DNA from: Escherichia phage vB_EcoM_CRJP21
DNA: 64,000 bases
Strand: one strand, 5' to 3'
Sequence record: OQ708376.1
In this document: in pieces, positions 38,230 through 53,832 of the stretch
Numbering within the stretch: position 1 is the stretch's first letter
Layout: each line of letters begins with the position of its first letter
Translations under genes and position numbers: made by a program
The notes under the pieces: model-generated
What the model was told of the DNA's origin: nothing
Databases searched by the model: none
The model's input: the letters and a program-made list of their open reading frames with translations, nothing else

Positions 38230-39432
38230 CTATTGTTGCCATAACTGCGTTGGCATTAATGTTAGTGTAGTAATACTATAAGTGCCATCTGGCAATCTAC
38301 CACCATTTCCATTCCAGCCACCACATGCATATAATTTATAATCTTTAGTAATTATTATGGTTCTGCTCCAATCTTTAGATGCCATAAGAACATTTTCATA
38401 ACCACCACTTATTGCACTAAGATTAAAAATATTCCAAGTTCTAACTAATGTATTAGTTCCATTACCTTCTTGACCATATGAGTTAGCACCACTACTTCTA
38501 ACATATGGTGCGTATTGTGCCATAGGTGCACCAATTGATGCATTTCCCATATTACTTGGACAAATAAAAGTACTGTACTTACTTACATCAACCGTGACCG
38601 ATGTGTTCCTAATTGGTGTTAGCTGATTTACCGATGTAGTCGTACCATTACCCGCTTGTCCAGTACTGTTAGCCCCGCTATAATATACAGACCCACCAGT
38701 AGTAAACCACCAAGTAACATCGTATGTAGTACTAATATGTTCTACATTACTAATCACGAATTTGTTCAAATATACAACAGAACTACCACCACATCCACTT
38801 TCACCAAAGTTATCCTTACCACAAAACCATGCATCTTTATTTGATTTGATATAGTGCGTTCCTTGTAATGAACATGCCATATGTGTAACTTCACCCATAT
38901 TAGTCATAACTGTGAGTGTAGGGATGGAATTTTTATTACCAGAGCCACATTCACCATTGGTATTTCTTCCACACGCAATTACTCTACCATCGGTTAATAA
39001 TATTCTAGTACTTTCACCTATATATACACTCTTGATCATATTAGCCATAACACCTATTTTATTAAATGCAACAGTAACATCAGTCCATGTTGTCAAATAA
39101 CCATTAACAGGTGTTGCATCTCCATAATCAGAAAATGCAGCCACAGACCCAGTGTAGTATATTTTATTATCCAAATCAATCATCAACGAACCTTGAACAC
39201 CAAGCCAAAAGGCTGCACAGTTCCTTGCAAGTACTGTAAATGACGAAACTGCTGCTGAATTCCCAAGACCAAATTGATACATGTTATTACTACCATAACC
39301 ATATAAAGTATTAGTTGGGTTATGTAGATACATACAGTTTGTATAATGTTGTTGTAAAACATCTGAGAACTCTACAGGTTCTGGACCTGGTGCAATATTT
39401 GCGTACTTAACCATTCTTCCAAAAGGTAACAT
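38230..39432 (-). CDS. RCC1-like beta-propeller repeat protein (paralog 9 of 9, first transcribed)
   Basis: N-terminus MLPFGRMVKYANIAPGP; motifs GSNNMYQFGLGN, GANSYGQEGNG; AAGGAGGGAAAT RBS with TATAAT-like box upstream. Confidence 0.7.
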   Translation of the reverse strand: MLPFGRMVKYANIAPGPEPVEFSDVLQQHYTNCMYLHNPTNTLYGYGSNNMYQFGLGNSAAVSSFTVLARNCAAFWLGVQGSLMIDLDNKIYYTGSVAAFSDYGDATPVNGYLTTWTDVTVAFNKIGVMANMIKSVYIGESTRILLTDGRVIACGRNTNGECGSGNKNSIPTLTVMTNMGEVTHMACSLQGTHYIKSNKDAWFCGKDNFGESGCGGSSVVYLNKFVISNVEHISTTYDVTWWFTTGGSVYYSGANSTGQAGNGTTTSVNQLTPIRNTSVTVDVSKYSTFICPSNMGNASIGAPMAQYAPYVRSSGANSYGQEGNGTNTLVRTWNIFNLSAISGGYENVLMASKDWSRTIIITKDYKLYACGGWNGNGGRLPDGTYSITTLTLMPTQLWQQ

Positions 39433-39480: not shown

Positions 39481-39509
39481 TTGACATCCTTTCAGTACTG
39501 GTGTACTAT
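39481..39509 (+). promoter_or_regulatory. promoter TTGACA-N17-TACTAT ahead of small-protein array
   Basis: consensus -35; divergent from RCC1-array promoter region. Confidence 0.5.
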
Positions 39510-39534
39510 AGAAGGAATATAAGGAGAACTACAC

Positions 39535-39762
39535 ATGACAAATACTCTTAAGTACTACCTCAATACTCTAAATGAACTAGAGTACGGGGAATTTCTCGCG
39601 GATAGTTCGTGGCTAATTGAGCTAAAAAATTATAATAGTCCAGGATGCACCCTTATGATGAACAATGCAATTGATACCCTCATTGTGAGTATTTTACACA
39701 GCAACATCTGCGGGGATAGCAATAAACAATTATCAAAAATCTTAGTACTGCTATCTATATGA
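39535..39762 (+). CDS. small protein, tandem paralog family S (member 1)
   Basis: AGGAGAAC RBS; first of about 17 consecutive ~60 aa ORFs. Confidence 0.5.
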   Translation: MTNTLKYYLNTLNELEYGEFLADSSWLIELKNYNSPGCTLMMNNAIDTLIVSILHSNICGDSNKQLSKILVLLSI

Positions 39763-39962
39763 ACATTGAACAGTACTACATCGATGCACTACCAACAAAA
39801 GGTCTACGAGAAAGCCTACTGTATACACAAAATACTTTTATACACTACAAACGTTGTCCTAAACTCCTGAACTCGTACAGGAGTAATATCATAAGAAATG
39901 CTTTACAAGGGGCAGAAAGTATGCAATACTATTATATCCTTGCCCTTTTAATCGAGTACTAA
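39759..39962 (+). CDS. small protein, tandem paralog family S
   Basis: ATGA overlap; C-terminus YYYILALLIEY. Confidence 0.5.
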   Translation: MNIEQYYIDALPTKGLRESLLYTQNTFIHYKRCPKLLNSYRSNIIRNALQGAESMQYYYILALLIEY

Positions 39963-39963
39963 T

Positions 39964-40173
39964 ATGAATACTGAACATAAAGAATTCTACACCAAATACC
40001 TTAGCAACGAAGAACAATTGTTTCTAAGGAGTGTATCACCTTTAAGTATAGATACACCACACGCCAGAGATTGCTTTAATAATTGTATACGTAGTACTAT
40101 AGAAGCAATCGAATGTAATAACAAAAATATTATGTACTCAGGTTTAATAGGACTAATATATTTCTATGAATAA
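39964..40173 (+). CDS. small protein, tandem paralog family S
   Basis: MNTEHKEFYTKY; near-duplicate of 42804-43013. Confidence 0.55.
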   Translation: MNTEHKEFYTKYLSNEEQLFLRSVSPLSIDTPHARDCFNNCIRSTIEAIECNNKNIMYSGLIGLIYFYE

Positions 40174-40360
40174 TCATAAAGATTTCTATTGTAGTAAACT
40201 ACCCAAACAAGAACAGCTATCATTCTCTTTAGCACCACCTATGAGAAAGGATAATCTGTATTATAATTACGATTTCAGGATGGTGACACGTTATGCAATA
40301 GAACATACGTTCCCTGCAACTAAGTACCGCTCTATCCTGAACCTCATCTTTAAGTTCTAA
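40166..40360 (+). CDS. small protein, tandem paralog family S
   Basis: MNNHKDFY; overlapping start. Confidence 0.5.
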   Translation: MNNHKDFYCSKLPKQEQLSFSLAPPMRKDNLYYNYDFRMVTRYAIEHTFPATKYRSILNLIFKF

Positions 40361-40407
40361 AAGGTACACCAGGGACCGAGTACTTTAACATAGTAAGGCT
40401 AATTACA

Positions 40408-40593
40408 ATGAATCATATAAGCTACTACTACCAACAACTATCCGACAGAGACAAGTACAGTCACAACTCCCATGTGTGGTACTACAAACGCGGCAGTATA
40501 AGAGACAAACAACATTACTTCTGTATTTCTATTAAAGAAGCACTGACAACTAAGTACACGTACCGAGCAGTACTGAAACTTATTGAAATGTAA
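40408..40593 (+). CDS. small protein, tandem paralog family S
   Basis: ORF; C-terminal KYTYRAVLKLIEM resembles next member. Confidence 0.5.
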   Translation: MNHISYYYQQLSDRDKYSHNSHVWYYKRGSIRDKQHYFCISIKEALTTKYTYRAVLKLIEM

Positions 40594-40601
40594 GGAAGAA
40601 A

Positions 40602-40784
40602 ATGAACATAGAATTCTATTTAACTAAACTACAACACGCCGAAAGATTCAACTTCAATAAGTTCAATATTTTCTACAATTGCGGGAACAAAAAAGATAAA
40701 CACACCTTCCTATATGTCGTCACAAGAGATGCACAAAACGAAAAGTACACATACAGAGAAGTAATGAAACTAATCGCTATTTAA
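40602..40784 (+). CDS. small protein, tandem paralog family S
   Basis: C-terminus KYTYREVMKLIAI. Confidence 0.5.
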   Translation: MNIEFYLTKLQHAERFNFNKFNIFYNCGNKKDKHTFLYVVTRDAQNEKYTYREVMKLIAI

Positions 40785-40792
40785 GGAATACT

Positions 40793-40972
40793 ATGCAACA
40801 ATTCTATAGAGAACGTATAACCATAAAAGACCGTTTCATGTACGACACCTTCGTGAAGTACTACAAACTAGGAACAAAAAGTACTAAAAATATTAATCTC
40901 AATAGCTGCATTTATGCTGTACTAACACAAGATAATCCCTACAGGGAAATCCTCGCCCTGGCATCTATATAA
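40793..40972 (+). CDS. small protein, tandem paralog family S (59 aa, below track cutoff)
   Basis: AAGGAAT RBS; MQQFYRER...REILALASI. Confidence 0.45.
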   Translation: MQQFYRERITIKDRFMYDTFVKYYKLGTKSTKNINLNSCIYAVLTQDNPYREILALASI

Positions 40973-40982
40973 AGGAAACCAA

Positions 40983-41654
40983 ATGAAACTTAATGCACAC
41001 AGCAAACAATACCTTAAGCACTTTAAGTACCTCAATAGTATTCAGGCAGAATCAGTTACATCTGCATATACGTATCACCCGAATGTACTAAAGAAACGAA
41101 ATAAAAAGGAAAAATCCAGTACAAATGGAGTTAACGTATCAAAGAACCTTGAATTGTACATGAAGAAAAATAATATAGCTGTTCATTATATGAATATCTA
41201 TAATACTGATTTAAAAGTATTGAGTACTAATACGAGCACAAAGGTACTAAAGAACGCATCCTTCATCATCAATATGCAGTTGGATAATACCCCGTGCACT
41301 TTAATGCTATACTTCGGGAATACATACTTCTTCGGGAATTGTAACACCTCCCACGATGTCAATACAGCACAATTCCAAATGGGTGGCATATACTCTACTG
41401 ATGCAGAAAAAGTACACGAGAATATGCACTTCTGGCAAGCACAACGTACAGAAGAAACTGATACAGTACTACAATTCCTCAAAGAATTACAAGGCAAAGA
41501 ATTATCCGAGGAAGAACTATTCATGTACAGTACTGTAATCGATAATCCAGCACTCTATAAAAATGCGTACAATCTGACAAAACATGTACAGGAAATTATC
41601 AGTACTAATAAGAAAATGCATCACCTCATTACGTATATTACAAACTATGTATAA
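40983..41654 (+). CDS. hypothetical protein (223 aa) embedded in small-protein array
   Basis: AAGGAAAC RBS; much longer than neighbours. Confidence 0.5.
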   Translation: MKLNAHSKQYLKHFKYLNSIQAESVTSAYTYHPNVLKKRNKKEKSSTNGVNVSKNLELYMKKNNIAVHYMNIYNTDLKVLSTNTSTKVLKNASFIINMQLDNTPCTLMLYFGNTYFFGNCNTSHDVNTAQFQMGGIYSTDAEKVHENMHFWQAQRTEETDTVLQFLKELQGKELSEEELFMYSTVIDNPALYKNAYNLTKHVQEIISTNKKMHHLITYITNYV

Positions 41655-41847
41655 AGAATTCTACATAAAAGAACTACCAAAGTTTCTACAAGGAAATCTA
41701 TTAGAAGATGAACCTCGCGGTATTGACTGTATATATGAAGCTGATTACTTCCGTACATGTACTGAACAAGTACTTAATGAAGAAGCTAATGAAAACAATT
41801 ATCAAGTACAACTGTACCACACCCTGTACCTTGCGTTCCAGTACTAA
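41647..41847 (+). CDS. small protein, tandem paralog family S
   Basis: start at MYKEFYIKELP (41647), overlapping upstream stop. Confidence 0.55.
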   Translation: MYKEFYIKELPKFLQGNLLEDEPRGIDCIYEADYFRTCTEQVLNEEANENNYQVQLYHTLYLAFQY

Positions 41848-41856
41848 GGATAATAT

Positions 41857-42042
41857 ATGTATAAAGAATACTACATAGAGAAACTCCCAATGTATCTCCA
41901 ACACCTTGTACCAAACGTTGCATTGGGTATAGAAAAAAACTACGAAAAAGACTACTTCATTCAGTGCACTAAATCCTCGATATATATTGAAGACTATAAT
42001 CGAGTACTGTATCATATCCTTTTACTAATATATAGGTACTAA
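41857..42042 (+). CDS. small protein, tandem paralog family S
   Basis: MYKEYYIEKLP...LLIYRY. Confidence 0.55.
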   Translation: MYKEYYIEKLPMYLQHLVPNVALGIEKNYEKDYFIQCTKSSIYIEDYNRVLYHILLLIYRY

Positions 42043-42043
42043 T

Positions 42044-42226
42044 ATGCACAAAGAATACTACACACAATTTCTCCCCAGCATTTTTGAACACTACGCCAGA
42101 TATAAAGTCCCTATGGATAACGATTTGGCAGTACTGGGATTCAATAACTGCATAGAACGAAGTATAGAAAATAGTAGTAGTTATGACCAGCTATATAACA
42201 CTATCCTACTTATATTCAGGTACTAA
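42044..42226 (+). CDS. small protein, tandem paralog family S
   Basis: MHKEYYTQFLP...LLIFRY. Confidence 0.55.
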   Translation: MHKEYYTQFLPSIFEHYARYKVPMDNDLAVLGFNNCIERSIENSSSYDQLYNTILLIFRY

Positions 42227-42227
42227 C

Positions 42228-42416
42228 ATGCATAAAGAATACTACACAAAACATTTCCCAATGTACCTCAGAACTAATCTATTAGATAAACCTCGCGGTA
42301 TCAATGCACAAAACGATAAAGTGTACTTTACTATGTGCACTAAAGCATGTATACTAGATTTTGACAGCTATCATCGAGTACTGTATCATACCCTGTACCT
42401 AGCTTTCGTATTCTAA
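42228..42416 (+). CDS. small protein, tandem paralog family S
   Basis: start at MHKEYYTKHFP (42228), 1 nt after upstream stop. Confidence 0.55.
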   Translation: MHKEYYTKHFPMYLRTNLLDKPRGINAQNDKVYFTMCTKACILDFDSYHRVLYHTLYLAFVF

Positions 42417-42425
42417 GAGAACAAT

Positions 42426-42611
42426 ATGCATAAAGAATTCTACTTAAGCCATCTCGATCTAAACTCCCAAATGCTTATACCACAAATCCCAATAGATATC
42501 AAGGATAAGAAAAATACCGAACAATTCATTTACCATACACAGTGTGCGATCACCCCAAATTACATTCCATATGAATTGTACTACATTCTCGCCCTAATAT
42601 ATAGGTACTAA
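42426..42611 (+). CDS. small protein, tandem paralog family S
   Basis: MHKEFYLSHL...ALIYRY. Confidence 0.55.
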   Translation: MHKEFYLSHLDLNSQMLIPQIPIDIKDKKNTEQFIYHTQCAITPNYIPYELYYILALIYRY

Positions 42612-42612
42612 T

Positions 42613-42798
42613 ATGCATAGAGAATACTACACACAATTTGTTAAAGGGAACTACAAACATGCCGTACCCAGAACCCCTTTAAATTTTCATGACCCAAGTA
42701 CTATATTCTTGTTCCATGACGCAATACGTACAGTACTCAATACTAAAGATGAAGATGTGCAGTACGTATTCTTACTATTACTTATATACAGACACTAA
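42613..42798 (+). CDS. small protein, tandem paralog family S
   Basis: MHREYYTQFV...LLIYRH. Confidence 0.55.
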   Translation: MHREYYTQFVKGNYKHAVPRTPLNFHDPSTIFLFHDAIRTVLNTKDEDVQYVFLLLLIYRH

Positions 42799-42803
42799 CT
42801 AAT

Positions 42804-43013
42804 ATGAATAAAGAACATAAAGAATTCTACTCCAAATACATAAGCCCCTCAGAACAAATGTTTCTAAGGACTACTCCACCTTTAAGTACTAATACATTTT
42901 TCGGCAGAGTATGCTACAATAATTGTATTCAAATGACTTTAAACGCAAACGAAGATGGTAACAGTACTAACCTGTACTCAGGTATCATAGGTATACTATT
43001 CCTGTATGAATAA
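42804..43013 (+). CDS. small protein, tandem paralog family S
   Basis: MNKEHKEFYSKY...LFLYE. Confidence 0.55.
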   Translation: MNKEHKEFYSKYISPSEQMFLRTTPPLSTNTFFGRVCYNNCIQMTLNANEDGNSTNLYSGIIGILFLYE

Positions 43014-43194
43014 TTACAAAGACTTCTATTTGAATACACTACCTACTGTACTTTCTCTAAGTGCTCAATGTAAAATCCCGCTGGATAATGCTTACGCCAG
43101 ATATAGCTATTCCATAACTGTTAATCGATGTATAGAGAATCATTGCAGTACTAACCAGTACTATAACATAATCCTACTTATATTCAGGTACTAA
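43006..43194 (+). CDS. small protein, tandem paralog family S
   Basis: MNNYKDFY...LLIFRY. Confidence 0.55.
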   Translation: MNNYKDFYLNTLPTVLSLSAQCKIPLDNAYARYSYSITVNRCIENHCSTNQYYNIILLIFRY

Positions 43195-43195
43195 T

Positions 43196-43378
43196 ATGAA
43201 TAAAGAACATAAAGAATTCTATATACGAAAACTAACATTCGTCCCCGTAAGAATATATAAAGAATGCGACCCAAGATTATACCTATGGCACTTCAATGAG
43301 TGCATAAAAGATTCTATATACCCTAAGAACTACAAAGAACAATTGTGCTCAGTACTAACACTAGTACTATCATATTAA
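43196..43378 (+). CDS. small protein, tandem paralog family S
   Basis: MNKEHKEFYIRKL. Confidence 0.55.
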   Translation: MNKEHKEFYIRKLTFVPVRIYKECDPRLYLWHFNECIKDSIYPKNYKEQLCSVLTLVLSY

Positions 43379-43393
43379 TTAATAGAGAATACT

Positions 43394-43585
43394 ATGTATA
43401 AAAACTTCTATATAAGTAAACTAAAAGAAAATGAACAAGTATGGATTAGATCTATAATAGTACTGGCATTTAATAGATATGCATTTAACAGATGTACCGA
43501 GATTGCTATAGACCCTTATAATATTAAAGAGAATGTACAGTATAATCAGTACTACTATATCTTAATGCTTATATATAGGAAGTAA
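43394..43585 (+). CDS. small protein, tandem paralog family S (last member)
   Basis: MYKNFYISKL...LIYRK. Confidence 0.5.
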   Translation: MYKNFYISKLKENEQVWIRSIIVLAFNRYAFNRCTEIAIDPYNIKENVQYNQYYYILMLIYRK

Positions 43586-44570
43586 TTAAACACAAGTAGA
43601 CAGGGGAAGCTCCTAGTGAACAACCTTTATGTACAGGCGAATTGTTAAAATTCAGCCTGGACAAATGCGATCACTAGGATTCTCCCCAGGCTAAACCCCG
43701 TAATCATAGGTAGTCATAAGTAATCATATATAAACATTTATATGAGCACCGTAGAATCACAGAATGATTATATATGATTCAGTACTGATTAGTATAGACA
43801 AGAATTCTCAAGAATGCACGGGAAGGATTCAGTACTGATATGCCACTAAGTAGGCAGAGGAAGTCTGCCGTACTTTGTAGTTTCCAAGCTCCTTTTCCAT
43901 TTTTCAAATTACATCAAATGTAATCAAAAGTAATCACGCAATGATTAGTACTGAATTATTACTTTCACCTTAATTACAATTACCCTTTTACCCTTCGGGG
44001 TAAAATTCAATTACCCCTTGAGGCTCCAGCAAAAAGTTGGTTAGTACTCCATCCTAAATCTCGATCCTAAAAATTTTGGAGTACCTATGAAATAAAAGTT
44101 GGATCTTCGAAAGTTGAAATTTACGTTGGGACGTTTATGATTTGTGGGATATAATGATGTTTGTAGACGGGTAGTTCTCAAGAATATCAGTACTGAAAGA
44201 TGAAAGAAAGTTATTGACTTTATGATTCAGTACTGTATAATGTTCTACATAGGGTGATGAGTTGCTGCGAACAATTCATTTACTCTACCTCCTGTCGTGA
44301 GACAGTACAGAAAAGATAGTTCCTCCTGTGGTGGTACATCTTTTTGAACCTCATATGAAAATCGTAATAACAGTACTGATATTAACAGAATGGTGTCAGT
44401 ACTGATTTTAATCTAAAGCATTATGCCACCAGCACAAGCTGGTGGATTCCCTCTAACAGTATTCAGTACTACATGATGGTCTTCATCCTCCTAGGGTAAC
44501 ATAGTGAGGGCTATGATGGCAGTACTGAATACTCCCTTTCAAAAGATAGATCTATGGTATAGTACTGACG

Positions 44571-44759
44571 GATTTTGGGCGTAGTTACCCTGGATGGATT
44601 TTGGGCGTAGATATGTCTAGCCCTCCAGAAGTCTGGAAGTAAAGATGGCTATCCATCTAGACGGCTAAACGGCTAGATTTCTGGATGGCTGGATGGCTAG
44701 ACGTTTGGACGGCTAAACGGCTAGATGGTTACACGTCTGGAAGTATAGACGGCTAAATC
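44571..44759. repeat. iteron-like short direct repeat cluster (GGATTTTGGGCGTAG x2; ACGGCTAAACGGCTAGAT x2; GGATGGCT x2; GTCTGGAAGTA x2)
   Basis: direct repeats read in ORF-free region. Confidence 0.7.
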
Positions 44760-45384
44760 AAAATTTTATTTTGTTTTTTCCAATAGTTCCCCTACCGCGT
44801 GGGGATAGTTTCCCCGCAGTATCTGGTGTTAGATTTTTCTGAATCTGGAATCATTATCTTATAAACTGGGGGCAATGTCAACGGCCTGGCCGGATATTTT
44901 TAAAAATTTTTTCAGTACTGAATTTTGGGCGTAACTATGCACCCGGTGGGCTTGAGTCTTTCTCGACTTGATGGAACTATTATACAGTACTGGAAAAATA
45001 AAGCAATACCCTGGAAGCAAAAAAGTTTTAATTAATTTGCTTGCTATCCTGGGCCGGACTATGGTACTATATTTCAGTACTGAGAAAGTGCGTTTACCTG
45101 CTAGGGTGCGGGAGTGTATCCTTTTTTTATATCTTGAATTTTGGACGGATCTTCCCACCCCCTGGGGTATCCGCTTTCTCGCGTCTATGTAGTAATTATA
45201 CGCTTTTTCAGGATCAAGTCAATACCTAAAAACAAAATAATTGAAAATAATTTAACGCGTTTAAACGGCCTGTAAAGCCCTGGAATGATTGGAATGGTGC
45301 AAATGTATAGCTTATGTGTATTAATGCGTTAGAATGCGTCTGAGGACGTTTTACGGGGTATAGGGATGATTTAGTGGATTGATT

Positions 45385-45471
45385 CAGTACTGAATAATAG
45401 TACTCCTATATAGAAAGATAGTTCCCCTGGATGATTGCAGTACTGAATAATAGTACTCCTATATAGAAAGA
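45385..45471. repeat. 34 bp direct repeat x2 (CAGTACTGAATAATAGTACTCCTATATAGAAAGA) separated by 19 bp
   Basis: two identical copies at 45385-45418 and 45438-45471. Confidence 0.8.
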
Positions 45472-45502
45472 AAACTATTTTAAAAGTATTTGTAGAAAGT
45501 AC

Positions 45503-45561
45503 TTGCACCGTACTGATAAAAGCGTATAATGTTTTACATCGAGAGCGGGAACACTTCCCGC
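45503..45561 (+). promoter_or_regulatory. promoter (TTGCAC-N16-TATAAT) + 5' stem-loop AGCGGGAAC-N-TTCCCGCT
   Basis: first of about 25 promoter/5'-hairpin cassettes. Confidence 0.6.
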
Positions 45562-45585
45562 TACACATTAAGAGAGATTAAAACG

Positions 45586-45948
45586 ATGGCGACTCAAATC
45601 AATAAAATCATGCTTAACCTGGTAAACTTCCGCGATGAGATGAAAGGTCTTCCGGCTGAAACTGTAAAAATTCACATTGCAGCTTATCGGGAACTTATTG
45701 CAATGTTGCCGCTTAAGCGTGAACAATACGCCGCTACTTTGATGCTGGATTCAATGATCCATATAATGATCTCAAATGATTTGACGATGGTTTATCAGTA
45801 TATGGGCGAAAATTTCGCGGTGTGTAGTAAGCCAGTACCAGGGATGGCAACAACTGAGGAATTGCACGGCTTAAACTTAAAACAAGATGCATGGGATAAT
45901 ATGCCTCGTTTCCTGGTATGGGCTGACAGTGGCAAAATTTACAAATAA
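45586..45948 (+). CDS. hypothetical protein (120 aa)
   Basis: ORF track 45529-45948; ATG 45586 downstream of promoter and hairpin. Confidence 0.55.
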   Translation: MATQINKIMLNLVNFRDEMKGLPAETVKIHIAAYRELIAMLPLKREQYAATLMLDSMIHIMISNDLTMVYQYMGENFAVCSKPVPGMATTEELHGLNLKQDAWDNMPRFLVWADSGKIYK

Positions 45949-45962
45949 GTTTAATAAAGTAC

Positions 45963-46021
45963 TTGCAAACTATGTTTAATGGCGTATAATGTTTTACATC
46001 AGGTGGGGAATAGTTCCCCAC
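45963..46021 (+). promoter_or_regulatory. promoter TTGCAA-N16-TATAAT + 5' stem-loop GTGGGGAA-TAGT-TCCCCAC
   Basis: consensus hexamers; hairpin at predicted +5 to +25. Confidence 0.6.
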
Positions 46022-46041
46022 TATATAAGAGGATTAAAAAA

Positions 46042-46281
46042 ATGGCTAAATCAAAAATGTTCTTAGGTCACAAAAACAAAACTCATTGGAATGTAAGCCT
46101 TTGGATTAATAACGATGAGGGATTGTATCGGTTGGCCCAGGACTTTATTAACGATAGCACTAATCGCAATGATGCGGCCCGTCATATGATGTTATTTTTA
46201 GAACAGACTGGACAAGATAAAACACCGGACGGATTCAAATATAGCACTACTGCGATCCGTGCGGCGATGGTTGGAATGTAA
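46042..46281 (+). CDS. hypothetical protein (79 aa)
   Basis: ATG 46042 after GAGGAT. Confidence 0.55.
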   Translation: MAKSKMFLGHKNKTHWNVSLWINNDEGLYRLAQDFINDSTNRNDAARHMMLFLEQTGQDKTPDGFKYSTTAIRAAMVGM

Positions 46282-46291
46282 TAGAATTTAT

Positions 46292-46330
46292 TTAAAGTAC
46301 TATCATTTTTTTGCGATAGTACTTTATAAT
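46292..46330 (+). promoter_or_regulatory. palindrome-containing promoter-like element (AAAGTACTATC-N10-GATAGTACTTT then TATAAT)
   Basis: inverted repeat + -10 hexamer; no good -35. Confidence 0.4.
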
Positions 46331-46367
46331 AGTGTTTTATTCATACACCAACGATAAGGGCAACAGC

Positions 46368-46634
46368 ATGAAAATTAAGTATTTTGCGACGCGTGAACAA
46401 GCTCGGATCGCCGCACGCCAGGACGGGGCAACGTTTAAAGATATGGGCGTACAATCGGAACGTGGTAAACGTTGGGCCATTGTAAAGCGTAGTACCGCCA
46501 GATCATTACAGTACTGGTTAGCGGCCTTAAAAAGTCCCGATAGTGTATCGCGTCGAGTGGTAGAAATAAAGCTCGACCGAAAGGGCAACCGCGTGACCGT
46601 GTACCGTACTAAAAAGATTGCAGTACTTGAATAA
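46368..46634 (+). CDS. hypothetical protein (88 aa); paralog of 58345-58740
   Basis: MKIKYFATREQARIAARQDGATFKDMG vs MITKFYATREAARIVAREEGAAFKDMG. Confidence 0.6.
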   Translation: MKIKYFATREQARIAARQDGATFKDMGVQSERGKRWAIVKRSTARSLQYWLAALKSPDSVSRRVVEIKLDRKGNRVTVYRTKKIAVLE

Positions 46635-46642
46635 AAAGTACT

Positions 46643-46700
46643 TGCAAACTATGTTTAATGGCGTATAATGTTTTACATCGAGAGCGGGAACTCTTCCCGC
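46643..46700 (+). promoter_or_regulatory. promoter TTGCAA-N15-TATAAT + 5' stem-loop GCGGGAAC-N-TTCCCGC
   Basis: near-identical to cassette at 45963. Confidence 0.6.
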
Positions 46701-46721
46701 CTATAACCTGGAGTAATGAAA

Positions 46722-46952
46722 ATGACTAATATGTATATGACTGAAGTTAAAACCGTAAAAGATACTACCACGAATAAAACTACTTACTTACAGCGGATCT
46801 GTGGTGTATGGCAACGTATCAGCAAATCAAAGTACTTTAAATTAACATCATATGCAAACCGTTCGGATTCATTCAGTACTGAAATAAAAGGTAATAAAGT
46901 ACACCAATACGGCACTTATTATTATTATAGCCTGGACGCGATTGCAGTATAA
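46722..46952 (+). CDS. hypothetical protein (76 aa)
   Basis: ORF track 46716-46952; ATG 46722 has better spacing from GGAG. Confidence 0.5.
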   Translation: MTNMYMTEVKTVKDTTTNKTTYLQRICGVWQRISKSKYFKLTSYANRSDSFSTEIKGNKVHQYGTYYYYSLDAIAV

Positions 46953-47202
46953 GCAGTTTACAAATCTTTACAATTGCCGGTATTGACTTATTTTGTCAGT
47001 ACTGGCATAATGTATTCATTGGCAGATAAGCCGTAGCCCATAGGGTGCGGGAGTGTATCTATAGAAAAATTAGTTTAGTATAGTTACAATTGTGCACCCG
47101 GTGGGTTAGCTGTTGTCATGGGGTATATTATACCAGTACTTGATAATGCTGTCAATACTTTTTTTTTACTATTCAGTACTGAAAACTATTTTTAAAAAGT
47201 AC

Positions 47203-47348
47203 TTGCAAACTATGTTTAAAGGCGTATAATGTTTTACATCAGGACGGGGAACGAAATAAGTAACTTCCCGTTAAGTAGCCCAGGAGTAAGGCACACGAAA
47301 AACTCCCCTGATAAAATAGTTTGACAAATGTTTTTAAAAGCGTATAAT
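47203..47348 (+). promoter_or_regulatory. tandem promoters (TTGCAA..TATAAT and TTGACA..TATAAT) flanking about 80 nt structured leader
   Basis: two consensus promoters about 118 bp apart; leader holds CGGGGAAC...CCCCG-type hairpins; second copy at 57123-57267. Confidence 0.55.
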
Positions 47349-47380
47349 ACTTACATCAACTACTGAATGAGGGTTACAAA

Positions 47381-47992
47381 ATGAAAACTATCACTACTAC
47401 TACTTATGTTATGGCTTTTTCTGAATTGAACGCAGAACAACAAACGTCAGCTATCGAACTGGTTCGGGAACGTGAAAAAAACTCAAACGACAATTATTTT
47501 TCTGAAAGTGAAATTGAATACTATAAAGAAACAGTACTACCGGAATATGGCATTAATGACGCTGAAATACAATTCAGTGGTTTTTGGTCCCAGGGTGACG
47601 GTGCATCAATCAGTACTGACCACGTTGACGCAGTGAAGTTTTTACGCAAGGTAAGAGCATTAACTAAGTATCGCTCAATCCGTCACTTGCTGAATGAAGA
47701 TGATTTGGCGATGAGTGTAAAACGTTCGCACTCCCACTACTCGCATGAGAATACTGTAAGCGGGTACATTGAATCGGCTTACACTGATTTAACCGCAAAA
47801 CAAGAAACGTTAGTTAATGAGCTTGAGGAACTACTCACTGAAACTATTCGTGAATTGTCCCGCAAGTTGTACCGTGATTTAGAGAATGCATATGAGGATC
47901 AATTCACTACTGAAAACATTACGGCACTGATTGAGGGTAACGAATATCAATTCAATGTTATTGATGGCGTAGTAGAATCAATCGAATATTAA
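47381..47992 (+). CDS. hypothetical protein (203 aa)
   Basis: ORF after tandem promoter element; GAGGGT RBS. Confidence 0.6.
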   Translation: MKTITTTTYVMAFSELNAEQQTSAIELVREREKNSNDNYFSESEIEYYKETVLPEYGINDAEIQFSGFWSQGDGASISTDHVDAVKFLRKVRALTKYRSIRHLLNEDDLAMSVKRSHSHYSHENTVSGYIESAYTDLTAKQETLVNELEELLTETIRELSRKLYRDLENAYEDQFTTENITALIEGNEYQFNVIDGVVESIEY

Positions 47993-48005
47993 TTTAAAAA
48001 GTACT

Positions 48006-48075
48006 TGCAAACTAAGTTTAAAAGCGTATAATACTTTATATCGAGAGCGGGAATAGTTCCCGCTACTAATGAGGA
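48006..48075 (+). promoter_or_regulatory. promoter TTGCAA..TATAAT + 5' stem-loop AGCGGGAATAGTTCCCGCT
   Basis: cassette architecture. Confidence 0.6.
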
Positions 48076-48084
48076 ATACTACAA

Positions 48085-48249
48085 ATGAATACTTTTACCT
48101 TCGCTCAATTGAACGCCCTGGATGTATTGTCTGATGCTTTGCGGGATGCAACTGAAAGCGGTTTATTTGACAATGTTGACATTCACCCTGATGTAATTAA
48201 TAATTTTTGTGATGCTATCGCAGAAGTACTGGAAGATCTAAAAAAATAA
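48085..48249 (+). CDS. hypothetical acidic protein (54 aa)
   Basis: GAGGAAT RBS after promoter/hairpin cassette; below track cutoff. Confidence 0.45.
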   Translation: MNTFTFAQLNALDVLSDALRDATESGLFDNVDIHPDVINNFCDAIAEVLEDLKK

Positions 48250-48258
48250 TAGAAAGTA

Positions 48259-48319
48259 CTTGCAATTAGTTTTCAGTACTGTATAATGGTTTACATCAAA
48301 GGGAGAAATGGTTCTCCCT
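48259..48319 (+). promoter_or_regulatory. promoter TTGCAA-N18-TATAAT + 5' stem-loop GGGAGAA-ATGG-TTCTCCC
   Basis: cassette architecture. Confidence 0.6.
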
Positions 48320-48337
48320 GGTAATGAGGAAAATACA

Positions 48338-48559
48338 ATGGCTAATATCACTACTCTTTCCCAACTGGAAGCACTGGTTAAATCTATGCGGGAACATGCT
48401 GACAAAATCGGCGTACAAGATCCAGCCGTTTGCTTCTGCGACGAATTGAATGATGATACCCTGGTAATAGCAGAAGTCCAGGACGTTTCTAACTATTCCT
48501 CGCGTTACACTGGCGGCGTAGCAAATAAAGGTGACTTCTGTTTATACCTTACAAAATAA
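48338..48559 (+). CDS. hypothetical protein (73 aa)
   Basis: ORF track 48308-48559; ATG 48338 after GAGGAAAAT. Confidence 0.55.
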   Translation: MANITTLSQLEALVKSMREHADKIGVQDPAVCFCDELNDDTLVIAEVQDVSNYSSRYTGGVANKGDFCLYLTK

Positions 48560-48563
48560 CAAC

Positions 48564-48593
48564 GCGGGGAGATAATAACTCCCCGTTACTTTT
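48564..48593 (+). terminator. intrinsic terminator (CGGGGAG-N-CTCCCCG + T-run)
   Basis: hairpin + TTACTTTTT. Confidence 0.6.
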
Positions 48594-48727
48594 TCAGTAC
48601 TGAATCATTTAATAGACGGATCTCGGCACCCGGTGGGTTAGTGACTGTTTCGTCTTGATGTAGTAATTATGCCAGTACTGGATGCACTTGTCAACAATTA
48701 TTTTCCAAATACTTTTTATTAAAATAC

Positions 48728-48783
48728 TTGCAATTAGTTTTTAAACGCGTATAATGTTTTGCATAGGGGGAGCGGTTCCCCTG
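48728..48783 (+). promoter_or_regulatory. promoter TTGCAA..TATAAT + 5' G-rich stem-loop
   Basis: cassette architecture. Confidence 0.55.
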
Positions 48784-48802
48784 GTAACTAAGGAATAATA
48801 AA

Positions 48803-49039
48803 ATGCTTGAACAAATCAAATCAACGTCTTCGAATGTAACGGGAACGGTAGCACACTTTACTAGTGATGAATCGCGGGGCGTTCCCTATTGTGCTGTACA
48901 TGTAAACACTGAGGGTAACTACTGGTTTACGGTTTACGGATCATATTCATTTGGACGGCCTGGACATCAAAAAATTCTGGATAAAGTACAACCAACGGGT
49001 AAAAATATCACTGCCGAAATGTTTTATAAAAAATCATAA
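48803..49039 (+). CDS. hypothetical protein (78 aa)
   Basis: AAGGAAT RBS. Confidence 0.55.
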   Translation: MLEQIKSTSSNVTGTVAHFTSDESRGVPYCAVHVNTEGNYWFTVYGSYSFGRPGHQKILDKVQPTGKNITAEMFYKKS

Positions 49040-49044
49040 AGTAC

Positions 49045-49103
49045 TTGCAATTAGTTTTTAGTACTGTATAATATTTTACATCGCAAGGGGAAACGGTTTC
49101 CCC
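49045..49103 (+). promoter_or_regulatory. promoter TTGCAA-N16-TATAAT + 5' stem-loop GGGGAAAC-GG-TTTCCCC
   Basis: cassette architecture. Confidence 0.6.
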
Positions 49104-49123
49104 TGGTAACTAAGGATAATCAA

Positions 49124-49423
49124 ATGAAAATTGCAATCATCGCCCTGGCTTTATCTGTTTCCTCTTTCGCTGTTAATGCGTCATTAGATGTAAGTAGTGA
49201 AAAATTCATTCAGTGCACTGTTGCAATGACCGATGAAAGAACTGGCGAGATTGTATTAAAGGATTTAGAGATCCAGCCGGAAGCATTTAAAAACGGCCCG
49301 TTCCATGAAGAAGACGAAAACGGTAGCACGACAATTTATTATGATGCCAGTACTAAACGCGGTTCGGTCACTGTAATGGATACCGAGAAAGTAACTCATA
49401 CCGGCGTTATTAATTGCCGTTGA
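49124..49423 (+). CDS. secreted protein (signal peptide)
   Basis: N-terminus MKIAIIALALSVSSFAVNAS. Confidence 0.55.
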   Translation: MKIAIIALALSVSSFAVNASLDVSSEKFIQCTVAMTDERTGEIVLKDLEIQPEAFKNGPFHEEDENGSTTIYYDASTKRGSVTVMDTEKVTHTGVINCR

Positions 49424-49444
49424 TAGATACTACGGGGTAACATC

Positions 49445-49675
49445 ATGACTAAGCGAATTGTTTTACTTAACGAAAGCAGTACTACACAACTACTTAACGC
49501 CGTGCATTATGATATTGAAACGAGCGTTAATCTTATCAGTACTGTAGTTCTGTTGGACACTGGAAAGGTAGCCAATGATAAAGCGATTGCAGGTATACTA
49601 ACGGATCTTGTGCCTGGTAGCAGTGCACCAATAACGTTAAATGGTAAAGTGTTTAATATTTTACTCACTGATTAA
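49445..49675 (+). CDS. hypothetical protein (76 aa)
   Basis: ORF in track; GGGG-rich RBS. Confidence 0.45.
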   Translation: MTKRIVLLNESSTTQLLNAVHYDIETSVNLISTVVLLDTGKVANDKAIAGILTDLVPGSSAPITLNGKVFNILLTD

Positions 49676-49681
49676 GTACAT

Positions 49682-49709
49682 AGCCCACCTGGTGGGCTTT
49701 TTTGTTTTT
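49682..49709 (+). terminator. intrinsic terminator (AGCCCACC-TGGT-GGGCT + T-run)
   Basis: hairpin + T6GT5. Confidence 0.7.
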
Positions 49710-49757
49710 GTAGTATCGTAGTACTGAGATACTTTGAAAATAGTTTTAAAAAAGTAG

Positions 49758-49785
49758 TTGACATTACCACAGAAAAGCGTAGAAT
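49758..49785 (+). promoter_or_regulatory. promoter TTGACA-N16-TAGAAT with about 120 nt leader
   Basis: hexamers read; long leader before ATG 49909. Confidence 0.5.
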
Positions 49786-49908
49786 GTATTACATCAAGAC
49801 GGGGAGCACTAAGTAGACCGCCAGTAAGTCGAACGAAAAACTGGACACGTCGAGAAAACTTTGATACACTAATAAACGTAAACTAAACTTTAATTGAGGA
49901 TTTATAAA

Positions 49909-50391
49909 ATGGCTAATGTAAAATCATTCATCAAAGCACTGGTAGCAAATGAAACTAACGTCGCGGCTGAGATCCTGGCTGAACTGGATAACGATACCAT
50001 GAAAGCGGTACGCAACAATTTTAACATTGCGTACAGTGAAGCTAAAGAACTGCAAGCCAAAAAGGTAGCAGAACTGGAAGAACAGAAAAAAGCCCGTGAA
50101 GCAGAACTACAAGCAACAATTGAAAGTATTCAGGCGGCAGTGTCTGGATTGGATCTGGAAGTGGTTGTAGAAATGGCACATAAAGCCCTGGCGGTTAAGT
50201 ACGGTGAAGATAAGCCGGAATCTAAACCTAAAAAATGGATTCAAGAACGTGTTACTGTAGTACTTGATAACGGTGAAGAACATTTGATTCCTGTACGCGG
50301 TAACTGCATTGCGGTAGTACTGGACGCTATCAAAGAAAGCGGTATGACTCGCGAGGAATGGATCGAAGCTCATCGCAAAGTTGAAGCATAA
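49909..50391 (+). CDS. hypothetical protein (160 aa)
   Basis: ORF track 49894-50391; ATG 49909 after GAGGAT. Confidence 0.55.
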   Translation: MANVKSFIKALVANETNVAAEILAELDNDTMKAVRNNFNIAYSEAKELQAKKVAELEEQKKAREAELQATIESIQAAVSGLDLEVVVEMAHKALAVKYGEDKPESKPKKWIQERVTVVLDNGEEHLIPVRGNCIAVVLDAIKESGMTREEWIEAHRKVEA

Positions 50392-50412
50392 CAATTAAAG
50401 TACTGAATCACT

Positions 50413-50439
50413 AGCCCACCTTAAACAGTGGGCTTTTTT
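50413..50439 (+). terminator. intrinsic terminator (AGCCCAC-N-GTGGGCT + T6)
   Basis: hairpin + T-run after gene stop. Confidence 0.7.
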
Positions 50440-50593
50440 GTGTCTGTAGTATTCCAGTCCACCAGCACCGCCTAGAATCGATTCTAACGCATTAAACTGA
50501 TTATCTGATACATCGCCCTAGCTGGTGGCGTTAAGGTCGTTAGAATGCGATTGAGAGCGTTTAAAGTATTTTGCAAAAAGTAATAAAAAGTAC

Positions 50594-50655
50594 TTGCACG
50601 ATTAAGAGATTAGCGTATAATGTTTTACATCGAGAGGGGGAAACGGTTCTCCTTC
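50594..50655 (+). promoter_or_regulatory. promoter TTGCAC..TATAAT + 5' stem-loop
   Basis: cassette architecture. Confidence 0.55.
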
Positions 50656-50676
50656 CAAATCAAAGGAATCAAAACA

Positions 50677-50904
50677 ATGGCTATTATCATTACTCGCGTA
50701 TCTGGTACTACTGGCAACGAACAAGTAGTTGCAGTCATTACTAACAAGGCAGGTGCGGAATTGCAAAATGCAATGAATACCTGGGCCGTTAATGAGTTCG
50801 GTCAGTGGGCAAGTGTAGCATACATTGAAACCTATCAAGTGCCGTCGATTAGTTTAACTGATTTGGGCGTTGAGCGTATCCTTTGCCTGGATGAATTAAA
50901 TTAA
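50677..50904 (+). CDS. hypothetical protein (75 aa)
   Basis: ORF track 50620-50904; ATG 50677 after AAGGAAT. Confidence 0.55.
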   Translation: MAIIITRVSGTTGNEQVVAVITNKAGAELQNAMNTWAVNEFGQWASVAYIETYQVPSISLTDLGVERILCLDELN

Positions 50905-50913
50905 AAAAAGTAC

Positions 50914-50973
50914 TTGCAAAGTAAATCGAATAAAGTATAATACATTACATCAAGGGGAGAAATGATTCTCCCC
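50914..50973 (+). promoter_or_regulatory. promoter TTGCAA-N16-TATAAT + 5' stem-loop GGGGAGAA-ATGA-TTCTCCCC
   Basis: cassette architecture. Confidence 0.6.
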
Positions 50974-50990
50974 ACTACAAGGAAACTAAA

Positions 50991-51203
50991 ATGGCTATCA
51001 TTACTAAAATCAAAGTTAACAAGACTATCGTTAAACTGGCAGAAGTGAAAGAAGGTTATAAAGTATCTTGGTGCGGTATGTATCGGACGTTCGCAGATAT
51101 AGATGATGCGATCAATTATTACAGTGACACGGTTAAAAACTTTGTTCGTGCTGATGTGGTTATGGCAGTGGCAACATATAAAGCAGCGAAAGAAAGTAAG
51201 TAA
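50991..51203 (+). CDS. hypothetical protein (70 aa)
   Basis: AAGGAAAC RBS. Confidence 0.55.
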   Translation: MAIITKIKVNKTIVKLAEVKEGYKVSWCGMYRTFADIDDAINYYSDTVKNFVRADVVMAVATYKAAKESK

Positions 51204-51226
51204 AAATATTATCACAGTACTATTGA

Positions 51227-51261
51227 CATAGTTTGATAGTACTGGCATAATAGATTTTATC
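51227..51261 (+). promoter_or_regulatory. promoter with embedded palindrome AGTACTAT-TGACATAGTTTG-ATAGTACT (operator-like), -10 CATAAT
   Basis: 8 bp inverted arms flank -35 TTGACA and spacer; the same or a closely related palindrome architecture recurs at 46292, 53833, 54093, 58262 and 61888. Confidence 0.55.
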
Positions 51262-51294
51262 AAGACGACACATATTAATTTAAGGAATACTAAA

Positions 51295-51618
51295 ATGGCT
51301 AAAACTATCATCAACACCGTTTCCCTGGCTGCAATCCATGCAATCAATGTTGACGGTAAACGTTGGACTGATTCATATGGCAATACTTATCATTCTTGTC
51401 ATGTAAGCGTTGAACTGGATAACGGCTTGAATGATCTGGCGGTTGAATCATTTACTTATGGCTATGAGGATGCATATCAACAAACGGCGGTATCACTCTT
51501 AAAGGAATCAGTAGACGGGCTTGATACTGTTGAAACCTCCCTCTATCGTTTGTGCAATGATCTTAATATCCCGTTGCATTGTACTGTACAGGATGTAAAA
51601 CGTAAAAAAGATCTTTAA
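51295..51618 (+). CDS. hypothetical protein (107 aa); paralog of 57926-58249
   Basis: shared W/RWTD-x-GNTYHSC, FTYGY, DVKRKKD segments. Confidence 0.6.
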   Translation: MAKTIINTVSLAAIHAINVDGKRWTDSYGNTYHSCHVSVELDNGLNDLAVESFTYGYEDAYQQTAVSLLKESVDGLDTVETSLYRLCNDLNIPLHCTVQDVKRKKDL

Positions 51619-51698
51619 TTAGCTTTACTTTATGCAGATACTTTGATATAGTGTCTGCATAGGGGAAAGAAATTAAATCAACTTAAGAGGAAAGTAAA

Positions 51699-51968
51699 AT
51701 GAAAAATATCAGTACTTTAATCGATGCAGGTACACATGTTCGTCGGTCTATGGTTGCAACCAGTTCTACAAAACAAGTAGCGAGCGGTTATCTTGTATTT
51801 GTGCACGATGGAAAACTCCTGGAACGTTCAATCAATTTTGATGTTAAAAACAATTGCCGTTTTATTATCTTTCGCCGTGAACAATATAAAATTGATTTGC
51901 CAGCGAAGCCCATTAGCGGGGCGTACAACGTGCAATCATTGTTTGAGCGTCAACCTTACACCTATTAA
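51699..51968 (+). CDS. hypothetical protein (89 aa)
   Basis: AGAGGAAAGT RBS. Confidence 0.5.
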   Translation: MKNISTLIDAGTHVRRSMVATSSTKQVASGYLVFVHDGKLLERSINFDVKNNCRFIIFRREQYKIDLPAKPISGAYNVQSLFERQPYTY

Positions 51969-52019
51969 TCAAAACATCGTTAGCGGTCGATTTAGGCCGC
52001 TTATATTGGGGATTATACC

Positions 52020-52292
52020 ATGAACGTTAATCAAGTACTGAATGAGATCGAAAGCATCATTAAACCGATGAAGCGTACTGATGCTATGTTAACACCGGAA
52101 GAATGCCGCCTTTATGAGCGTTACAGCGTCGAACAAGTCCAGGCAATGGCTATGGCTACCCCAGCCGTTTCACCGCCTGAGAATGCGTTACAGGACGTTA
52201 CAGGGGATTATATCATTAATCCAGTACTAGGGAAGATGACTGCAATCACCGAAGATCAAAAAGACTACTTAAGCCAGTACTTAAAAGGTTAA
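52020..52292 (+). CDS. hypothetical protein (90 aa)
   Basis: ORF in track. Confidence 0.5.
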   Translation: MNVNQVLNEIESIIKPMKRTDAMLTPEECRLYERYSVEQVQAMAMATPAVSPPENALQDVTGDYIINPVLGKMTAITEDQKDYLSQYLKG

Positions 52293-52297
52293 TTAAT

Positions 52298-52557: not shown

Positions 52558-52575
52558 AATAACAGGAGAAACAAA

Positions 52576-52958: not shown

Positions 52959-52963
52959 AAAAA

Positions 52964-53148: not shown

Positions 53149-53168
53149 TGGTAATAAGGAAACAAATC

Positions 53169-53819: not shown

Positions 53820-53832
53820 AAATATTATCACA

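Follow-up and report, generated by a model that had tools for sequence, protein, structure and literature searches.

Positions 39535-43585 (+ strand) of a 64,000-nucleotide (nt) stretch of the genome of Escherichia phage vB_EcoM_CRJP21 (sequence record OQ708376.1; the whole stretch is referred to as the window) hold a tandem array of 17 small open reading frames (ORFs) of 59-75 amino acids (aa) and one ORF of 223 aa (40983-41654). Of the small genes, at least 16 encode diverged copies of a single protein of about 60 residues, which is predicted to be soluble and to consist of four helices. The array, which has an orphan fold as its basis, is a lineage-specific tandem expansion and accessory locus in a jumbo phage. 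A first-pass annotation of this DNA, made from the sequence alone, had described one expanded small-protein family of unknown function, which is borne out here; an ORF listing recovered all of its ORFs at their coordinates, including the 223-aa ORF embedded in the array. Two starts were corrected to an internal ATG that gives the family N-terminus (m09, to 41647; m12, from 42183 to 42228). The array ORFs, named m01-m18 in order with m08 as the 223-aa ORF, and the two signals before them are listed here together with the evidence for each; HMM stands for hidden Markov model, E for expectation value, dN/dS for the ratio of non-synonymous to synonymous substitution, AF2 for AlphaFold2, pLDDT for its predicted local distance difference test and pTM for its predicted template modelling score.

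39481..39509, + strand: sigma70-type promoter-like site of the divergent intergenic region, reading TTGACA-17 nt-TACTAT, its spacer containing CAGTACTG; 10/12 consensus matches.
39521..39526, + strand: Shine-Dalgarno sequence AAGGAG, 8 nt before the m01 ATG; invariant in eight phages.
39535..39762, + strand: m01, 75 aa, first gene of the operon and possible family member; hhalign to core E 0.004, z 2.9; orthologue dN/dS 0.28.
39759..39962, + strand: m02, 67 aa, divergent member, subfamily C; hhalign 86%, E 5e-6, z 10; ATGA overlap with m01.
39964..40173, + strand: m03, 69 aa, core member; HMM E 5e-27; PHROG 11711; 54% identity to m15.
40166..40360, + strand: m04, 64 aa, core member; HMM E 7e-25; overlaps m03 by 8 nt.
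40408..40593, + strand: m05, 61 aa, divergent member, subfamily B; phmmer 32 bits to m06.
40602..40784, + strand: m06, 60 aa, subfamily B; phmmer, and hhalign to core with shuffles.
40793..40972, + strand: m07, 59 aa, subfamily B; phmmer, and hhalign to core with shuffles.
40983..41654, + strand: m08, orphan ORF of 223 aa, not a family member; PHROG 29152; same position in 8/8 phages.
41647..41847, + strand: m09, 66 aa, core member; family HMM; start overlaps the m08 stop by 8 nt; replaced in phages 121Q and G17.
41857..42042, + strand: m10, 61 aa, core member and modelled protein; AF2 pLDDT 93.8, pTM 0.78.
42044..42226, + strand: m11, 60 aa, core member; family HMM; TAATATG junction.
42228..42416, + strand: m12, 62 aa, core member; family HMM; corrected start.
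42426..42611, + strand: m13, 61 aa, core member; family HMM.
42613..42798, + strand: m14, 61 aa, core member; family HMM.
42804..43013, + strand: m15, 69 aa, core member; family HMM; missing from 121Q and G17.
43006..43194, + strand: m16, 62 aa, core member; family HMM; missing from 121Q and G17.
43196..43378, + strand: m17, 60 aa, core member; family HMM.
43394..43585, + strand: m18, 63 aa, core member, last gene before an ORF-poor region (the hub); family HMM.

The all-versus-all phmmer comparison yielded 63 ordered pairs above 11.4 bits, the top score from 20 shuffled sets, with real scores of up to 78 bits, so that the pairwise similarity goes beyond composition, as the first-pass annotation had supposed. 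These pairs join m03, m04 and m09-m18 into one family of 12 members, whose HMM recognized the core members among 340 ORFs of the window with E values from 1e-21 to 5e-27, the next best ORF being found at E 0.07. The same 12 of the 18 ORFs matched PHROG 11711 (function unknown; best E 6e-28), a profile that covers the core members but not the divergent subfamilies (m02 and m05-m07). For the divergent members, seven related phages supplied orthologues and additional paralogues for profiles, which were compared with the core profile by hhalign, with 40 column-shuffled versions of each query alignment as the control. The genes m05-m07 form a second cluster, with mutual phmmer scores of 16-32 bits, and their profile aligned with that of the core from end to end (probability 92.7%, E 4e-7, z 13), a score reached by none of the 40 shuffles; the m02 profile likewise aligned end to end (probability 86%, E 5e-6, z 10; 0/40 shuffles). 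An extra cassette found in phages slurp01, G17 and phAPEC6 is intermediate, with scores of 31 bits against m02 and 14.7 bits against the core HMM, and the m02 subfamily HMM matched m05 at E 0.0016. For m01, two of the 40 shuffles scored as high as the real alignment; its termini (KYYLNTL... and ...KILVLLSI) resemble those of the family without a statistical link, and its AlphaFold model is all-helical at low confidence (pLDDT 63). The earlier count of about 17 paralogues is thus matched by 16 demonstrated members and one possible member (m01) among the 17 small ORFs, and the shared motifs reported with it stand for the 12 core members ([HY]-K-[ED]-[FY]-Y, F-x-x-C-[TI] and L-[IV]-[YF]-x-Y).

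By profile comparison, m08 is unrelated to the small-protein family (hhalign probability 0.2%) and has its own profile, PHROG 29152. It matched no entry of Pfam or the PDB, and those of its homologues that carry a source name come from Asteriusvirus-like phages or Escherichia coli assemblies. A 220-aa ORF on the far side of the neighbouring block of RCC1-like genes (27768-28430, + strand) is colinear with m08 in the short motifs KNNI..Y, CNTS and LMFQYS/LFMYST. A link between the two was considered and rejected (BLASTP E 2.1, hhalign probability 1.6%).

The AF2 model of m10, calculated from a 33-sequence alignment, has helices at residues 2-7, 12-15, 28-43 and 47-60, with N-terminal residues 1-10 at pLDDT 91 and their helix packed into the fold. 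Its C-terminal helix, hydrophobic and exposed, may serve in dimerization. A small helical protein had been expected from the sequence, with two or three helices; four are predicted. Residue conservation, calculated from 36 sequences non-redundant at 70% identity, showed that Y6 is invariant and that K3, L10, F34, C37, [TI]38, [IL]42, [YL]51, L55, L57, [IV]58, [YF]59 and Y61 are strongly conserved, the N-terminal part forming the motif [HY]K[ED][FY]Y..L. The columns between these conserved aromatic and aliphatic positions are nearly random, and the pattern is the signature of a folded core. Variation between the copies is located in the loop 16-27, on the exposed face of helix 3 and in the turn 43-49, and the array proteins range in isoelectric point (pI) from 4.4 to 9.6 and in net charge from -7 to +5. 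No membrane-spanning segment was found in them, the highest 19-residue Kyte-Doolittle mean being 1.18 (m01), with core members at or below 1.02.

The family has no match in Pfam, none in the PDB by sequence or by Foldseek, and in the BFVD library of viral structures only two members of the family itself were found. An indexed search of 5.8 billion proteins returned 50 family sequences, and an exhaustive HMM search of 1.84 billion representative proteins returned 33 matches, one of which, the 531-aa protein P0067, is a low-complexity repeat and was rejected as a false positive. All family matches with a source name belong to Asteriusvirus-like coliphages or Salmonella phages, or to such a phage within an E. 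coli assembly.

The array segment is 99.6% identical over its full length to the reverse strand of Escherichia phage PBECO4 (Asteriusvirus, 348 kb; KC295538.1, 153706-157756), and about 30 further Escherichia and Salmonella jumbo phages of the Asteriusvirus group match it with lower coverage or identity. A family HMM scan that covered ~347.9 kb (~99.6%) of PBECO4, with record positions 296800-298113 left aside and the window substituted for its own part of the genome, found the family confined to the array, with no further copies. The array sequences are already public, but undescribed: full-text literature searches on the genus and strain names found no paper describing the array. Only six coding sequences (CDS) are annotated across it in the PBECO4 record (KC295538.1, 150706-160756), some with different starts, and those for m05, m12 and m15 are N-terminally truncated calls. 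In PBECO4, 11 of the 17 small array genes have no protein record, and they will be missed by proteomic or comparative work based on that annotation. The annotation of 121Q covers all array ORFs (gp249-gp265), every one as a hypothetical protein, and that of phAPEC6 covers 9 of its 19, 8 of these being small.

All 17 small frames are open in each of eight phages compared. Nei-Gojobori counting of the window against its orthologues, with all small ORFs pooled, gave Sd 164, Nd 249, pS 0.055 and pN 0.020, a dN/dS of 0.36 whose direction is clear even though the comparisons all share the window as reference and are hence phylogenetically non-independent; per-gene orthologue values range from ~0 to 0.9. 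By these counts the small ORFs are real genes under purifying selection. Synonymous codon identity at conserved residues is 0.63 at the termini and 0.50 in the middle, and because this excess is only slight, the conservation is at the level of the protein, not of the DNA. Over-conservation of the junction DNA through selection for recombination sites was rejected, the small codon excess being largely due to codon bias.

Array ORFs of the eight phages were each assigned to the best window paralogue. The copy number, which the first-pass annotation had proposed to compare between genomes, does vary: 14 small ORFs are present in UE-S1 and JNE01, 16 in 121Q, 17 in the window and G17, 18 in phAPEC6, 20 in slurp01 and 21 in E9.1. 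All eight phages retain the same flanks (the promoter and RCC1 side, and the hub side) and the central m08, and are otherwise ~90-99% identical; JNE01 has a largely different set of family members. The array thus shows what defines a phage accessory region, namely variable content between conserved flanks in close genomes. The blastn alignment of the window with 121Q or G17 ends at m09+20 and resumes at m10+7, the body of m09 being replaced by two other cassettes. A second break, from m15+26 to m16+170, removes m15 and m16 in both phages, and the blocks flanking it overlap by ~50 nt in 121Q, the result to be expected of a crossover within shared junction sequence. The extra cassette of slurp01, G17 and phAPEC6 is located directly after m04. 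All of these breakpoints (m09+20, m10+7, m15+26, m16+170 and just after m04) lie in or next to a conserved junction, and the longest DNA repeat of the array is the junction itself (gene end, TAATATG and the next N-terminal motif), with 63 nt in four copies of 63-84% identity. Metagenomic protein P0017 is chimeric, with the body of m10 and the C-terminus of m12. By the breakpoints, the junction repeat and the chimera, the family diversifies through unequal or ectopic homologous recombination, in which sister phages add, remove, replace or fuse whole cassettes at the conserved junctions. That m09, m15 and m16 have been lost naturally from 121Q and G17 means that single members can be dispensed with.

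The tight packing with TAATATG stop/start junctions noted earlier was found again, with four TAATATG junctions and one TAACATG. Starts and stops overlap by 4 or 8 nt at four junctions, and the remaining gaps are 5-15 nt, save for 47 nt between m04 and m05. Most of the non-overlapping junctions have a Shine-Dalgarno sequence of the AAGG/AGGA type, and at the TAATATG junctions the penultimate codons AGG TAC provide AGGT at the right spacing; every junction thus has either a Shine-Dalgarno-like sequence or stop/start coupling. No + strand terminator-like hairpin was found within the array. The region is accordingly annotated, from these signals, as one putative polycistronic, translationally coupled operon.

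The array diverges from nine RCC1-like genes on the - strand (28411-39432), from which it is separated by an intergenic region of 102 nt, and is followed by the ORF-poor hub, which agrees with its earlier placement between these two elements. Upstream of m01, the -35 hexamer TTGACA is invariant and the -10 reads TAC(T/A)AT in 8/8 phages, including JNE01, which has ~80% identity to PBECO4 over 59% of the length (PMC10868205). This site resembles the strongest promoters of the window, TTGACA-N8/9-CAGTACTG-TATAAT, but with a weaker -10. T4-type late promoter motifs (TATAAATA or ATAAATA) were absent from 28-46 kb. RpoD-like promoters of the related phage CBB cluster before short hypothetical genes, a region read by its authors as one of early host takeover (PMC5259590). 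From the conserved host-type sigma70 promoter, the array is probably one early operon transcribed by the host RNA polymerase.

Two further promoter-like matches lie inside array genes: TTGACA-17-TATCAT in m12 (42361-42389, + strand; 11/12) and TTGAAG-17-TATCAT in m10 (41987-42015, + strand). In both, GAGTACTG adjoins the -10 and mimics the layout of the strong phage promoters. These sites may serve as internal promoters, or may simply arise from conserved coding sequence (...RVLYH...).

On balance, the array is best read as an early, host-directed battery of accessory genes encoding binders built on one scaffold, a reading to which a probability of roughly 0.45 is given. The conserved sigma70 promoter would drive the operon, with host RNA polymerase transcribing it early in infection; the proteins would be cytoplasmic and not packaged; each paralogue, a small stoichiometric binder or inhibitor, would have its own host protein or variant as target, for host takeover or for anti-defence; and the repertoire would be tuned by gain and loss of cassettes, not by fast point substitution. 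A sharper version is tentative and leans towards the doubtful: a library of mini-binders on one scaffold in which each paralogue would neutralize a separate variant of a polymorphic defence factor or essential factor of E. coli or Salmonella, with immediate-early synthesis, no injection, and the junctions as built-in recombination sites. If true, such a library would be a functional counterpart, with a previously unknown fold, of the internal proteins (Ips) of the T-even phages.

Several observations weigh against the host-directed battery. Searches with the array proteins turned up no resemblance, in sequence or in fold, to characterized proteins of anti-defence or host takeover (Acr, Ocr/ArdA, AsiA and the like). 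Pooled orthologue dN/dS is below 1, and the amino-acid changes between orthologues are not concentrated at the columns that vary between paralogues (5.4% vs 6.3% at conserved columns; Spearman rho 0.12, p = 0.36). Residue-level diversifying selection was rejected, as these changes do not track the paralogue-variable sites, and by this comparison there is no arms-race signature at the level of residues; the surface of each paralogue is maintained, and change comes about through gene swaps and not through rapid substitution. The promoter scan found 29 promoter-like sites vs 31.9 expected from shuffles, without enrichment, so that the promoter call is a positional and comparative argument only. 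The -10 of the site at 39481..39509 is imperfect, its call resting on position, conservation and likeness to strong promoters, and the whole intergenic region is 90% conserved, so the conservation is not specific to the hexamers. No Asteriusvirus transcriptome or total-cell proteome was found in the literature searched. The arms-race or anti-defence role suggested by the first-pass annotation is plausible and has support only in gene content and context, through the turnover, the promoter, the non-detection in phAPEC6 virions and the variation in charge, while purifying selection, the lack of a site signal and the lack of homology speak against it.

The nearest documented parallel to the binder model is that of T4 Ip1, Ip2 and Ip3, each of which inhibits one GmrSD variant without cross-protection (PMC12373910); this blocking of one variant by one member is the working model proposed for the array. 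The T-even ip locus is known as hyperplastic (Repoila et al. 1994, as cited in PMC12373910 and PMC3012670). Like the array, it consists of tandem genes for small, non-structural-looking proteins with a short conserved N-terminus in common, and its content differs among close relatives. The T-even Ips have only a capsid-targeting leader in common (PMC3012670), whereas the array proteins are homologous end to end; the Ips are packaged and injected, whereas the array products were not detected in phAPEC6 virions; and the array proteins share neither a conserved Ip cleavage motif nor sequence or fold similarity with the Ips. The array promoter is of the host type and probably early. The Ip genes, by contrast, are late, their proteins being built into the prohead. 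The array may work like the Ips, by analogy, but is not one of their loci, as it does not show what defines them: packaging, a conserved cleavage motif, and protein bodies unrelated to one another.

Phage accessory regions have been described as hotspots of anti-defence genes (Silas et al., bioRxiv 10.1101/2023.04.06.535777). These regions, and anti-CRISPR loci as well, resemble the array in their variable content between conserved flanks in near-identical genomes and in their small genes of unknown function. They typically hold unrelated, horizontally acquired genes, whereas the array consists almost entirely of paralogues generated in place, by duplication and recombination, from one lineage-restricted orphan fold. 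Other large phages also tolerate families of many copies of a tiny domain, with a guessed function, such as the ~35 zinc-ribbon copies of Bacillus phage G (PMC7824862) and the 22 paralogous ORFs of phage CBB (PMC5259590); the array differs from these expansions in its fold, in having no metal-binding pattern and no known relatives, and in being strictly tandem and in one operon. The array can also be set beside the multigene families (MGF) of eukaryotic viruses. The MGF110 and MGF360 families of African swine fever virus (ASFV) and the amplification of poxvirus K3L ('genomic accordions') are likewise tandem arrays of paralogues, which differ in copy number from strain to strain and modulate host responses. 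The viruses, proteins and hosts are unrelated to those of the array, and the likeness is an analogy only.

Among the alternatives, the best-surviving one, still unlikely, is that the small proteins work together with the RCC1-like virion proteins next to them, for example as paralogue-specific chaperones, as assembly factors or as adaptors of hair-like fibres, and were expanded with them as pairs. The two tandem families lie back to back on one common intergenic region, the RCC1 paralogues are virion proteins in phAPEC6 (gp549 and gp551, adjacent to the array; PMC7247149), and both arrays vary in size, with RCC1 units of ~9 in the window, JNE01 and UE-S1 and ~12 in 121Q and E9.1. Co-expansion was nevertheless rejected, since the RCC1 and small-ORF counts have no one-to-one relation (~9/17 in the window, 12/16 in 121Q, 12-13/21 in E9.1, 9/14 in JNE01 and 9/14 in UE-S1), and m09 was replaced, and m15-m16 lost, in phages that retain the adjacent RCC1 genes. 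The upstream signals differ as well: TTGACA-17-TACTAT precedes the array, whereas several RCC1 genes are preceded by a hairpin, GCCAGTAC...GTACTGGC with a T run, followed by TAAATATAGTATAAT-N-AAAGGAGG with no -35, which suggests different temporal classes. The RCC1 block of 121Q also contains fragmentary copies.

A slightly less probable explanation holds that the array proteins are packaged internal (ejection) proteins like the T-even Ips, their N-terminal motif being a capsid-targeting leader, and are injected with the DNA to disarm host nucleases. The conserved N-terminus of ~9 residues on varied small proteins and the tandem, recombination-prone locus recall the T-even ip genes (PMC12373910, PMC3012670); the phage has a T4-like prohead core protease and an inner body (PMC7247149). 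None of gp540c-548c was among the 62 virion proteins of phAPEC6, although a 4.7-kDa protein was detected there (PMC7247149), a negative that covers the 9 of 19 array ORFs (8 small) that were annotated and thus searchable by mass spectrometry (MS), proteins of small size giving few peptides. The N-terminal helix forms part of a confidently predicted fold instead of a detachable leader, homology extends along the entire length of the proteins, unlike in the Ips, and the host-type promoter suggests early rather than late synthesis. In T4, the prohead-protease site after the leader is [LI]-x-E. That motif occurs within the first 15 residues of only 3 of the 12 core members (m09, m11 and m18).

Less probable again is that these are small phage regulators or nucleic-acid binders whose targets belong to the phage, such as the promoters and CAGTACTG palindromes of the adjacent hub. 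The array ends directly at the hub, which has 12 CAGTACTG copies, some of them inside strong promoters, and the proteins are small and helical. Structure searches, however, gave no match to a helix-turn-helix or other DNA-binding fold, the charge is not consistently basic (pI 4.4-9.6, with several acidic members), and 14-21 exchangeable copies would be unexpected for such regulators. That the ORFs are decaying, functionless duplicates or untranslated, with the repeat kept for a reason at the level of the DNA, is very improbable: the six CDS of the PBECO4 GenBank record, the odd composition of the coding strand (G 14%, unlike other + strand genes) and the palindrome-related GTACT that recurs at array gene ends would agree with it, whereas the 17 frames open in eight phages with a dN/dS of 0.36, the coupling signals at every junction, the protein-core conservation with a very confident AF2 fold and the only slightly more alike terminal synonymous codons (0.63 vs 0.50) argue against it.

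Genes of jumbo phages are mostly of unknown function, and tandem families with fast turnover are the most promising among them for new host-manipulation or anti-defence activities. A very small domain that is confidently folded and apparently an orphan is available here in at least 16 natural variants; the related phages give ready comparisons in the form of natural knock-outs, replacements and a chimera; and the whole offers a compact system for new inhibitor-target pairs and for the diversification of binders by cassette recombination.

In its composition, the coding strand of the array (39535-43585) is A-rich and G-poor (A 38.9%, G 14.3%, C 19.4%), G reaching 19-21% in the other + strand genes of the window; because of this poverty in G, the GC skew of the array is negative, like that of the RCC1 genes on the opposite strand. 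No tRNA or known RNA genes were found in the 64-kb window. Stop-codon reassignment was rejected as the cause of the few long ORFs around the array: recoding of TGA or TAG adds little and recoding of TAA merges ORFs, as expected with an AT-rich genome, so that the standard code with many short genes fits.

The 8-base-pair (bp) palindrome CAGTACTG occurs 59 times in the window vs 0.9 expected (~65-fold), and shuffles never exceeded five copies. Some copies are located exactly between the -35 and -10 of strong promoters (for example at 4151, 19052, 44228, 48274 and 60707). As most copies lie within coding sequence without promoter context, it is the palindrome as such that is favoured genome-wide. 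The hub (43586-45528), ~1.9 kb in length directly after the array and unannotated in 121Q and PBECO4, contains its 12 copies in direct and inverted orientation, most densely at 43780-45445. It also includes iteron-like 8-bp tandem units GGATGGCT/AGACGGCT (44627-44754), a 44-nt direct repeat spaced by 53 nt (45375-45471) and near-consensus promoters at 44214-44241 (+ strand) and at 45222-45195 and 44881-44853 (- strand). The hub could be a regulatory or replication-origin region. Positions 44000-64000 contain almost only short + strand ORFs (~50-200 aa) among strong TTGACA/TATAAT promoters, which fits the predicted early region of Rak2/CBB-like phages.

A third tandem array adjoins the RCC1 block upstream (24946-27726, + strand) and consists of eight back-to-back ORFs of 104-141 aa, strongly hydrophobic and probably encoding multi-pass membrane proteins. 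Paralogy is clear for its first two ORFs (E 3.5e-32); the remaining ones show only a weak relationship (E 2e-4 to 1e-2). This array is kept in 121Q (gp224-232), E9.1, JNE01 and UE-S1.

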